A DNA stretch of 8,365 nt from positions 1 to 8,365 of the IMG/VR virus record IMGVR_UViG_2531839668_000012; one strand, written 5' to 3'. Shown here one piece after another: positions 6,001 to 8,365 of this stretch. The position numbers were made by a program. Every line of letters begins with the position of its first letter. Position 1 is the stretch's first letter. This DNA is from a virus. Lineage: Duplodnaviria; Heunggongvirae; Uroviricota; Caudoviricetes.

Positions 6001-8365
6001 TCAGAACGGATGATATTGCAGAATTAGTTACGTACCGTTATTATCCTGCGCCCGGCCCTTTAGCTCAGTGGTGAGAGCGAGCGACTCATAATCGCCAGGT
6101 CGCTGGTTCAAATCCAGCAAGGGCCACCATCACATACCGCCATTAGCTCATCGGGATAGAGCGTCAGCCTTCGAAGCTGGCTGTGCGGGGTTCAAGTCCC
6201 CGATGGCGGTCCATTATCAGCATCATGCGTTGTTAGCTCAGTCGGACAGAGCAATTGCCTTCTAAGCAATCGGTCACTGGTTCGAATCCAGTACAACGCA
6301 CCACACTTATTTTCCAGGCTCGCTTCGGCGGGCCTTTTTTGTATCTGCGCCACGCCCGGCGCATATCAACCACAGAGCCTTTCGGGGGTGAGCTTACGGA
6401 GTGGTCAGTGTGACTTTCTCTGTGGGCAGATCGCTCCCGGGCGTTGGCTCACCCACCCAAAGGAACGTCACGATGTTTGTATTTTTGGTAAAAAAGCCCG
6501 CCGAGCGGCAGTGGAAATTAAAAAGTTTGAGAAACGTGATCTGGCACAGGCGGTTATTAATGCTGCCTATCTGGTGGCCTATGCAGATGGTGAATGTGAG
6601 GCTTCAGAGAAAGCGAAGATCGAGCAGGTCTTGCGTAACCAGCCTGCGTTGTCCGCGTTTACGTCAGAAATTAATGCGATTAGCGCAACCATTATCGGTC
6701 AGCTGGATACGAACTTTAAAACTGGTCGTCGAGCGGCATTGCGTGAAATTGAAGATGTGAAACACGATACGCGTGAAGCGGAAGATGTGCTGGATGTGGC
6801 GGTGGCCATTGCGGAGGCAGACGGCGAAATTGAGCCGGAAGAGCGCAAGGTGCTGGAAGAGATTGCCGGTGTTCTGGGTCTTCGTCTGGAGAATCACCTG
6901 TGACGGTAAAACTGCGCCTGGCTGTGGCTGCACTCCTGCTGTTTCTGGTGGTGATGGTGGATTTCACCAGCAGAATCATGTCGGTGCTGGCGGATGGGGT
7001 GCTGGTCTGCGGCATTGTGGTATTGCTGTAGCCGGTGATAAAAAGAAACAGCCTGCATAATGCTTGATTTTTTTATTTGCTGTTTATTAAAAATACTACT
7101 GCATGGTGAATCCCCCTGTGCGGAGGGGCAATCAGCAAGTAGGTATATGTGATAATCGCGGATTCAGGTGCTGATACTGAATTCACCGGGAGGCACCCGG
7201 CACCATGCAAGAAAAAGAATGTGCATGCAAACATGCCCCTCTCCGGAGGGGCATTTTTTATGGGTAAAAAATGCCCGAATGGGTTCGGGCAATAGCATGA
7301 GATACTGATATTGTTGTGTTGTTATCGTGTGGATTTTAACCAGGGTTTATCAGGCTGCGCAACTGCGTGGCCTTTTTTCATTTCTTGGGCTGTAGTCCCC
7401 GTGTGTCATTCAGGCTTCCGGACTACAGCCCACTCCATATCTGATTTAATACACTATCCCGGCCGGGAGGAATAATGACATTTAAACATTATGATGTTGT
7501 CAGGGCGGCGTCGCCGTCAGACCTTGCGGAAAAGCTGACACACAAACTGAAAGAGGGCTGGCAGCCGTTTGGTAGTCCGGTGGCCATAACCCCTTATACC
7601 CTGATGCAGGCGATTACAGCAGAAGGTGATGTGGTGGTCAGTGGTGCAACTGAGCCGGATTGGTACTACGTCATCGTACTGGCCGGGCAGTCCAATGCCA
7701 TGGCTTACGGTGAAGGGCTTCCGCTGCCGGATTCATACGATGCTCCGGATCCGCGCATTAAACAGCTGGCGCGCCGCAGTACAGTGACGCCGGGTGGGGC
7801 TGCCTGCAGATATAACGATATTATTCCGGCCGACCACTGCCTGCATGATGTGCAGGATATGAGTACGCTGAATCATCCGAAGGCAGACCTGAGCAAAGGG
7901 CAGTACGGCTGTGTCGGCCAGGGGTTACATATTGCCAAAAAACTGCTCCCGTATATCCCGAATAACGCGGGGATCCTGCTGGTACCATGCTGTCGTGGTG
8001 GTTCGGCATTCACCCAGGGCGCGGAGGGGACATTCAGTGCGGACACGGGGGCCAGCCAGGATTCGGCACGCTGGGGTGTGGGTAAACCGTTATATCAGGA
8101 CCTGATTGCGCGCACTAAAGCTGCATTACAGAAGAACCCGAAAAATGTGTTGCTGGCGGTGTGCTGGATGCAGGGAGAGTTTGACATGAGCGCCGCCACC
8201 CACGCACAGCAACCTGCGCTGTTTACAGCCATGCTGACACAGTTTCGTGCTGACCTCTCCGTGTTTAACGCGCAGTGCCATGGTGGCAGTGCTGCAGATG
8301 TGCCGTGGATTTGTGGTGACACGACGTATTACTGGAAAAATCATACGCTACCCAGTACGACACCG

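Follow-up and report, generated by a model that had tools for sequence, protein, structure and literature searches.

The stretch of viral DNA analyzed here, the 8,365 nucleotides (nt) at positions 1 to 8,365 of IMG/VR virus record IMGVR_UViG_2531839668_000012 (in the following, the window), very probably carries at positions 6352-7082 a tciA-tciB moron, a two-gene accessory cassette that is common in lambdoid prophages and that has decayed in this copy. The cassette stands in the late-region slot where Shiga toxin (Stx) phages carry the toxin genes stxAB; it is already known as a gene pair, and it is known at this position. It is preceded by a conserved leader RNA, which is the only element of the window that is possibly new. 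The leader and the two genes are arranged as follows (coordinates refer to the window; lengths of proteins are in amino acids, aa).

6338-6475, + strand: conserved leader RNA with a predicted pseudoknot, 138 nt, ending in the Shine-Dalgarno (SD) sequence and the ATG of tciA (covariance models R1 and R2; covariation)
6473-6903, + strand: tciA, coding for a standalone TerB protein (143 aa if intact), frameshifted by one G lost after 6478 (Pfam, PHROG 632, PDB entry 2JXU, alignment with phage JLK-2012)
6900-7031, + strand: tciB, coding for a small membrane protein of the DUF3927 family, 43 aa in this copy (Pfam DUF3927, PHROG 1470, alignments, hydropathy)

The tciA-tciB cassette in the Shiga toxin slot

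The flanks of the cassette can be followed into Stx phages base by base. From the end of the antiterminator gene Q through the late promoter pR', qut, the terminator tR', a second terminator, the tRNA genes ileZ-argN-argO and a further terminator, positions 5358-6351 are 98% identical to phage 933W; the homology breaks at 6351, 43 nt before stx2A, and returns at 7083, 87 nt past stx2B, to continue with 72-74% identity over positions 7083-8337. The Stx1 phage BP-4795 is 76% identical over positions 7099-8337, and the part at 7099-7474 is shared directly downstream of stxB1. These breakpoints place segment 6352-7082 exactly where stxAB would otherwise be. An earlier note on this DNA, made from the sequence alone, had read the Q-like open reading frame (ORF), the terminators, the tRNA trio (CAU, Arg, Arg) and the NanS-p-like esterase as the late-region cargo site of Stx phages, and had placed a TerB-family protein and a coupled small hydrophobic ORF in the position of stxAB. 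All of these features are present (Pfam, ARAGORN, terminator scan); the nucleotide alignments with 933W and BP-4795 bear out the cargo site, and the exchange of stxAB for the TerB pair is confirmed as well.

Profile searches identify both proteins. The 171-aa ORF at 6388-6903, which has a GTG start, matches the Pfam TerB family (PF05099) with 58.4 bits (cutoff 24.4) over residues 54-166; the intact homologue matches PHROG 632 over its full length (residues 1-143, E = 3.8e-69) and aligns from residue 15 to 137 with residues 21-144 of Klebsiella TerB (PDB 2JXU, E = 3.1e-7). The 43-aa ORF matches Pfam DUF3927 with 45.6 bits (cutoff 25), and the TciB peptide of the window matches PHROG 1470 with E = 1.6e-21. 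The PHROGs database annotates phrog_632 as 'tellurite resistance' and phrog_1470 as 'TciB-like', and assigns both to the category 'moron, auxiliary metabolic gene and host takeover'. The tciA/tciB pair was reportedly first named in phage P1. The same names appear in the GenBank record of phage JLK-2012, from an O55:H7 strain, with the gene order Q, three tRNAs, tciA, tciB, esterase and holin; a 'TciA/TerB-like protein' is annotated at the same position in phage PPyecE_EH1910, and the layout of Q, (methylase), tRNA, tciA, tciB, esterase and holin recurs in O157:H7 and commensal-strain examples. RefSeq gives the product names 'tellurite resistance TerB family protein | DUF3927 family protein' at this position, a combination of labels that was constant among the complete Escherichia coli genomes in which the pair was found, and TerB has been listed among the conserved neighbors of the Pas prophage small RNAs, or sRNAs (Pas sRNA preprint, 2026).

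Among 5,426 complete Escherichia coli genomes, the 1.17-kb segment between the tRNA genes and the esterase gene was found at a coverage of at least 80% in 407, and the tciA start region in 763 (median 3 copies, maximum 6). The tciAB pair is among the commonest cargoes at the Shiga toxin site, occurring in ~14% of complete E. coli genomes and often in 3-6 copies. The earlier note had left open whether the cargo was already on record; the 763 genomes, the JLK-2012 annotation and the PHROGs families show that it is a common, annotated gene pair at this position. The modular layout already known for the Stx cargo slot is borne out by the analysis, and genetic work on tciAB would fill a gap in the understanding of how such prophages affect their hosts.

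The cassette has relatives in P1, Erwinia jumbo phages and N4-like phages; TciA homologues were found in 131 phage records, virulent N4-like phages and jumbo phages included. Over the full 143 aa, intact lambdoid TciA and P1 TciA share 53% identity; for lambdoid and P1 TciB the value is 48%. A tblastn search of phages with the 55-aa TciB found nothing, probably as an effect of the low-complexity filter on this hydrophobic peptide, and TciB relatives were traced instead by Pfam, PHROGs and manual alignment. For a third gene of the P1 cassette, tciC, a tblastn search of the window with P1 TciC (35 aa) returned nothing at E <= 10, a result whose sensitivity is limited by the short query.

The cassette frequently has tRNA genes as neighbors. 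The tciAB pair lies directly beside them in lambdoid phages, in P1 (locus L007, 1415-3285) and in Erwinia jumbo phages (loci L009 and L206, 883-4010), and tRNAs are found within ~0.2-0.8 kb in 33 of 46 IMG/VR tciA loci. An obligate linkage was considered and rejected, since it fails in Pseudomonas phage AF, in Salmonella As2 and in several Enterobacterales prophages; the association is frequent, not defining. A separate observation concerns phage vB_Apl-pPE4 (pPE4; locus L205), whose stated host is Actinobacillus pleuropneumoniae: its late region looks lambdoid-enterobacterial, which is odd for a phage of Pasteurellaceae, and it may be that the host assignment is questionable or that the phage is of mosaic origin.

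State of the window copy and candidate function

TciA homologues have 141-143 aa and the N terminus MFGIFGKK or MFGIFKKK; their start codon corresponds to the ATG at 6473, which the SD sequence AAGGAA (6460-6465) precedes by 7 nt. At this start the window reads ATGTTTGTATTT, where JLK-2012 and 76 of the 79 compared loci read ATGTTTGGTATT; the difference is a 1-nt deletion that removes a G in codon 3. With this G missing, the ATG at 6473 is out of frame with TerB, and a 95-codon junk ORF is read from it. As a result of the frameshift, the 171-aa ORF, in which the TerB frame is open across the whole span, represents the longest mechanical stretch and not a gene; its first 28 codons overlap the non-coding leader. 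The 171-aa TerB ORF of the earlier note is therefore real as an ORF and as a TerB match, but the actual gene starts at ATG 6473, codes for 141-143 aa and is frameshifted here. RefSeq annotates a coding sequence (CDS) at 6481-6903 from an ATT start (140 aa); this ATT lies 15 nt from the SD sequence. The exact tciA allele of the window was found in 5 of 766 matching records. The host-like codon usage that had been attributed to the TerB gene is only weakly supported by its composition (GC content 50.6%, GC content at third codon positions 47.5%, compared to 45% and 42% in stx2A). Within the protein, the residues A38-D39-G40 with E46, and D117-G118 with E124, are invariant in the E. coli, P1, CharmingMan and Erwinia phage proteins; these acidic ADG...E motifs, located in both halves of the TerB domain, form a predicted metal site.

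The sequence around the tciA start (6476-6496) shows homopolymer variation among loci. After ATGTTT, a single G is found in 3 loci and two G in 76; after TTTTGGT, a run of six A occurs in 17 loci and a run of seven in 20, and the copies with seven A start the TerB frame at a TTG, 4 nt past the ATG. A run of 4 to 12 G is found inside the leader (6384-6388). The homopolymer variation, noted in loci L005, L059 and L068-L090, could be decay, sequencing error or phase variation.

The GTG start of tciB overlaps the TGA stop of tciA as GTGA and is preceded by its own GGAG, 7 nt upstream of the GTG; the overlap of tciA stop and tciB start is found in E. coli prophages, P1, CharmingMan, Erwinia jumbo phages, Salmonella As2 and pPE4. 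The hydropathy profile of TciB has two hydrophobic segments that are split by the residues D-F-T-S-R. The protein is normally 54-55 aa long; in the window, a TAG at 7029-7031 replaces the TGG (W44) of its relatives and drops the conserved W-P-x-I/L-K motif (WPxIK) together with the basic tail. Both W44 and WPxIK are kept in E. coli phages, P1, CharmingMan and Erwinia phages. The 43-aa hydrophobic ORF of the earlier note, with a GTG that overlaps the TerB stop, is present as described; it is the truncated allele of a 54-55-aa protein. This allele is in the minority without being rare, with an exact 80-nt match in 93 of 704 records.

With the region from N to Q, the tciA start frame and the tciB C terminus lost, this copy has most likely ceased to be active, and the simplest reading is that cassette and prophage are both in decay.

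The position of intact cassettes bears on their possible role. Temperate phages have the pair in the interval from Q to the lysis genes; in CharmingMan and pPE4 the holin genes follow closely after it. In lambdoid phages, pR' and intrinsic terminators precede the cassette, and the lysis genes come after it; a promoter scan of 6336-6473 detected no promoter-like site between the terminator at 6316-6341 and the ATG at 6473. Late-promoter expression in intact phages is plausible. In the literature, TerB is described as associated with the inner membrane and in complex with TerC; the defence systems Bunzi and Shango, which have a suggested role in 'membrane surveillance', also contain TerB domains; and the ter operon is connected with resistance to tellurite and to pore-forming colicins and with the inhibition of phages. 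A functional mechanism may be proposed, although only tentatively. TciA, a standalone cytoplasmic TerB domain, would be made late together with TciB through Q-antiterminated transcription; TciB would anchor TciA at the inner membrane, comparable to TerB-TerC, DjlA and the transmembrane-bearing TerB protein of Bunzi; and the TciA-TciB complex would buffer or sense membrane or ion stress, for example by protecting against pore-formers or superinfection, or by tuning lysis.

Several points weigh against this combined view of an inactive copy and a membrane-tethered protein pair. The TerB frame is open from 6388 to 6903 and RefSeq retains a CDS with an ATT start, so that residual expression is possible; pR' and qut are intact and could be served in trans by Q protein from a further prophage in the cell; the truncated tciB allele occurs in at least 93 genomes and may be tolerated or even functional; the interaction of TciA with TciB and its membrane anchoring are suggested by gene coupling and hydropathy only; and the searchable literature reports no experiments on tciA or tciB. 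Carried further, the open TerB frame and the 140-aa RefSeq protein would suit a cassette that is still functional here, with TciA translated from ATT 6481 or GTG 6388 and the 43-aa TciB acting as an active short isoform. The frequency of the 43-aa allele (at least 93 complete genomes), the GGAG ahead of the tciB GTG, and the alternative N termini of relatives, such as the seven-A variant starting at TTG, could be cited in its favor. Yet this explanation appears improbable, since the good SD sequence AAGGAA serves the out-of-frame ATG 6473 and lies 15 nt away from the ATT; GTG 6388 is located inside the conserved, structured leader and has no SD sequence; the tciA allele is rare (5 of 766 records), W44 and WPxIK are conserved, and the prophage's own Q is truncated.

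Other functions than membrane or ion-stress buffering have to be weighed as well. The earlier note had entertained a stress, toxin-like or phage-defence cargo, and an anti-phage or toxin-like pair (abortive infection or toxin-antitoxin) that protects the lysogen would be in keeping with the links of the ter operon to phage inhibition and colicin resistance, with the TerB domains of Bunzi and Shango and, in principle, with a small hydrophobic peptide serving as a membrane toxin. However, PADLOC-DB 2.0, which includes Bunzi and Shango, yielded no family above noise (the best TciA match was PDC-S48, with E = 0.0031 over 35 residues; TciB had none); the cassette, placed behind terminators and with no promoter-like site at 6336-6473, is probably silent in a lysogen; virulent N4-like and jumbo phages also have homologues; and P1 tciA, tciB and tciC were non-essential in a CRISPR interference screen. 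A defence or toxin role is thus left without support and seems unlikely. Tellurite resistance, which the RefSeq product name and the Pfam family would imply, is more doubtful by far. No terZ, terA, terC, terD or terE is annotated nearby (RefSeq, 17 kb around the locus, only prophage genes); the minimal resistance unit consists of TerC-TerD plus TerZ or TerA, not of TerB alone, according to work cited in PMC12054061; and the name 'tci' was assigned by homology only. Both the defence/toxin and the tellurite explanations are less well supported than the membrane/ion-stress mechanism.

The leader RNA upstream of tciA

The chances appear about even that the leader is an undescribed, widespread, pseudoknotted cis-acting RNA, part of the ribosome-binding region of moron genes in temperate and some virulent phages of Enterobacterales, which gates the translation of these genes or processes the long late transcript. 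Its elements, all on the + strand, are listed here as they occur in the window.

6347-6351/6358-6362: stem P0, a hairpin of 4-6 bp with a C-rich loop of 6-7 nt
6352-6357 with 6439-6444: pseudoknot PK1, between the P0 loop and a segment ~80 nt downstream
6370-6377/6418-6425: helix P1, 6-8 bp
6378-6383: invariant CCUUUC (YYUUUC), complementary to the SD sequence
6387-6394 with 6446-6453: candidate helix P2, UGAGCY with GGCUCA
6459-6463 and 6473-6475: SD sequence AAAGG and ATG at the 3' end of the leader

The case for an RNA is carried by compensatory changes. In P0, four of the five pairs have changed on both sides, with GCGCC/GGCGC replaced by CACAUC/GAUGUG in Erwinia phages and by CCGCC/GGCGG in the Klebsiella phage. 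Compensatory changes affect seven of the eight pairs of P1, whose variants include CCACAGAG/CUCUGUGG, CCGUAGAG/CUCUACGG, AACCACAA/UUGUGGUU, CACAGAA/UUCUGUG and CCAAAGA/UCUUUGG, and further CGAGAG/CUCUCG, GAAAG/CUUUC and CGUCGA/UCGACG; one P1 pair is represented by all four Watson-Crick types among 86 distinct sequences (AU 27, CG 17, GC 15, UA 4). For the whole leader structure, 93.6% of the cells are paired, compared to 82.3% in shuffles and 27-56% in slid controls, and the covariation score is 0.196 versus 0.061 and was reached by none of 500 shuffles; these pairing and covariation values derive from an alignment that was fitted to the model and is therefore biased towards structure.

The pseudoknot was analyzed with sequence anchors and not with a fitted alignment. 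At least five contiguous Watson-Crick pairs are formed in 115 of 133 unique leaders, and the mean of 5.2 pairs compares to 3.2 with class-swapped loops. The pairs observed are ACGCCC:GGGCGU, CGCUC:GAGCG, UCUCAC:GUGAGA, UCGCAC:GUGCGA, UCGUAC:GUACGA and UCGCAU:AUGCGA, and the 3' segment of PK1 ends ~2 nt before an invariant GGYUYA. The candidate helix P2 is 94.7% paired, with two compensatory positions, and overlaps an alternative helix, H3, in the RNAalifold model. A first, hand-built fold of P1, P2 and P3 scored below the RNAalifold model on the MAFFT alignment, in part because the Erwinia rows were one column off; P3 was dropped, and P1 was recovered by the model-based alignment. At the end of the leader, all 130 leaders with an SD sequence and start found, among the 133 unique ones, have AAAGG followed after 7-11 nt by ATG. 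The leader of the window folds somewhat better than its shuffles (z = -2.7). A promoter inside the leader was considered and rejected, as no -10 or -35 element is conserved across the leader classes.

In its distribution, the leader is not tied to tciA. Models R1 and R2 find it before tciA in prophages of E. coli, Citrobacter, Pantoea, Franconibacter and Pseudescherichia, in Klebsiella phage Kp4866-6 and in Erwinia jumbo phages; diverged copies precede antirepressor genes in the lysis cassettes of Stx1 phage BP-4795 and PPyecE, and others precede a KilA-N gene, a tail-tip-related gene and a gene for a secreted NMT1/phosphonate-binding-like protein. Copies elsewhere include L004:9316-9458, L003:10450-10592, L160:5983-6115, L204:2369-2503, L009:1449-1593 and ~100 IMG/VR loci. 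In a pattern scan of IMG/VR, the leader was found in at least 120 contigs; the ORFs that start at the ATG of the motif form 16 clusters and represent at least 14 distinct, real families, among them TerB, three antirepressor/KilA-N types, a glycosyltransferase-like protein and others. A contig scan with the pattern AGAGCCTTTC-N(45-75)-GGCTCACCC returned 110 matches, approximately the chance estimate for 19 fixed bases in 596 Gb; the genuine ones among them come only from Enterobacterales (Citrobacter, Pantoea, Franconibacter and Pseudescherichia). The prophage of a Pseudescherichia metagenome-assembled genome (L160:6113-7111) deserves separate mention: the same leader precedes the secreted NMT1/phosphonate-binding-like protein (phrog_6856), which is followed by a coupled 50-aa hydrophobic peptide ending in YWPFKPKK, upstream of a holin-like gene. 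This layout echoes tciA-tciB; a relationship of the 50-aa peptide to TciB was rejected at an hhalign probability of 0.3%.

Conservation of the leader exceeds that of the gene behind it. The CharmingMan leader is 82% identical to that of the window, whereas the TciA proteins are 43% identical; the leader of pPE4 is nearly identical to the PPyecE leader, with TciA at 41%; and the leader is also kept in Erwinia jumbo phages. A search of the whole window against Rfam 15 at E <= 1 gave no family over 6347-6475, and a search of 6300-6520 at E <= 10 returned only terminator-type and noise matches. A prior description of the leader was sought with no match in the supplements of Tree et al. (2014) and none in the literature searched, of which the coverage was partial.

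The same pattern of conservation could be produced by a conserved DNA-level 'boundary sequence' that serves cassette exchange by homologous recombination and is not a functional RNA: the same leader stands in front of at least 14 genes that are unrelated to one another, and it is conserved far above the coding sequences (leaders of CharmingMan and pPE4 at ~82-98%, TciA at 41-43%). Recombination linkers need identity and not covariation, so that this alternative does not account for the divergent leader classes that keep their pairing by compensatory changes (seven of eight pairs in P1, one of them in all four types), for the co-variation of the P0 loop with its 3' partner in at least four classes at a fixed position, or for the SD sequence and ATG that are part of the motif. 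A pure DNA boundary is therefore considered rather unlikely; as a caveat, RNA and DNA-boundary roles are compatible and not mutually exclusive. If the cis-acting RNA is confirmed, it would be a new phage regulatory RNA; it could explain the expression and timing of late-operon accessory genes and could aid in finding morons in phage genomes.

Prophage setting and comparison with known systems

The features around the cassette and its leader are given in the order of the window.

5298-5612, + strand: antiterminator Q, C-terminal fragment (Pfam Phage_antitermQ, profile positions 64-118 of 118 only)
5600-5682, + strand: late promoter pR' (5600-5627), qut, and terminator tR' (5657-5678 plus T run), by homology with 933W
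6054-6303, + strand: tRNA trio ileZ (CAU, read as Ile), argN (UCG) and argO (UCU) (ARAGORN, Rfam tRNA, RefSeq, 933W)
6316-6341, + strand: intrinsic terminator after the tRNAs (terminator scan; the 933W homologue is annotated as 'terminator upstream of the stx genes')
7075-7265, + strand: sRNA of the STnc100 family, with terminator 7233-7254 plus T run (Rfam RF02076, 144.9 bits, gathering threshold 47, full length)
7266-7327, - strand: anti-GcvB sRNA AgvB, convergent with STnc100 (Rfam RF02702, 96.5 bits, threshold 56, full length)
7475-8365, + strand: 5' part of a nanS-p-type sialate O-acetylesterase gene that runs off the window (Pfam DUF1737 and SASA)

The window aligns to the E. coli O157:H16 chromosome of strain 98-3133 (NZ_CP051001.1) with 0 mismatches and two 1-nt gaps; in the RefSeq annotation of that region, the prophage insertion site adjoins mlrA (yehV). 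The gene order in RefSeq is integrase, xis, exo, bet, gam, kil, cIII, two small genes and a partial N, which is directly abutted by the N-terminally truncated Q ('incomplete, missing N-terminus'). Since the Q fragment abuts the partial N, the immunity, replication and nin regions are gone and the prophage is defective. Downstream of the truncated Q follow the tRNAs, the TerB family protein, the DUF3927 protein, the SASA family carbohydrate esterase, holin, lysozyme, Rz and tail-fibre remnants. The promoter scan located TTTACG-16-TATCAT, together with a terminator hairpin, within 5600-5682, where the 933W record annotates pR', qut and terminators; the terminator scan counted 10 terminator-like hairpins, compared to 2.5 expected from shuffles.

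Other observations concern the remainder of the prophage. Relative to NZ_CP051001.1, the window has two 1-nt deletions, one near 2292, which splits exo into ORFs 2017-2304 and 2277-2696, and one near 8341, which falls in nanS-p close to the end of the window; the window either derives from another assembly or strain, or these differences are sequencing errors. The Rfam family Lambda_thermo (the cIII thermoregulator, RF01804) matches over its full length at 4086-4144 on the - strand with 88.5 bits, consistent with a lambda-like early-left region in a remnant prophage. Positions 5900-6013, in the interval from tR' to the tRNAs, hold part of a DNA methyltransferase gene (a pseudogene in RefSeq), which is present at its full length of 1.06 kb in relatives such as PPyecE and SCU-387; this position is another variable cargo site upstream of the tRNAs.

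Downstream of tciB, the 'structured spacer' that the earlier note had listed among the contents of the slot consists of two known sRNA genes, STnc100 and AgvB (Rfam); AgvB agrees with the consensus at 62 of 62 positions, including the anti-GcvB motif CACAACA. The spacer belongs to the shared architecture of the slot and not to the cargo. The moron site at PR' with its convergent sRNAs, and the function of AgvB, have been described previously, and the prophages listed in that study are Sp3, Sp4, Sp9, Sp10, Sp11, Sp15 and Sp17 and the Stx2 phage Sp5 (Tree et al., 2014; PMC4104026). Compared to the AgvB/AsxR and partner sRNAs of Tree et al. (2014), the pair at 7075-7327, placed between the moron CDS and the conserved esterase ORF, shows no difference.

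The stx2AB and stx1AB morons of 933W and BP-4795 occupy the identical slot, with a left flank that is 98% identical to 933W and a right flank of 72-86% identity, the latter comprising the convergent sRNA region and nanS-p; in contrast, the stx cassettes carry a cargo unrelated to tciAB and lack the conserved leader (model R1 reaches only 12.9 bits upstream of stx2A). The tci cassette of P1 shares with the lambdoid copies the stop/start overlap and the adjacent tRNA genes; it is located in the dmt-ban region of P1, whereas the cassette analyzed here occupies a late-promoter moron slot, and the window copy is frameshifted and truncated. Klebsiella KP-TerB, a member of terZABCDEF (2JXU), has the same domain over nearly its full length, including both ADG repeats; unlike KP-TerB, TciA stands alone without TerC, TerD or TerZ partners, is paired with a DUF3927 peptide, and is phage-borne. 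With the TerB proteins of Bunzi and Shango, TciA has in common a TerB domain with a proposed membrane role; tciAB differs from these systems in having no PADLOC match and no partner genes (ATPase, helicase), and in being carried by phages, including virulent ones. Finally, the tciA leader resembles the lambda cIII thermoregulator and riboswitch-type leaders as a structured 5' element that ends in the SD sequence and start codon, which fits translational control; it differs from those leaders in having no Rfam family, in combining a hairpin, a loop-to-3' pseudoknot and an enclosing helix in a distinct architecture, and in preceding many unrelated genes.

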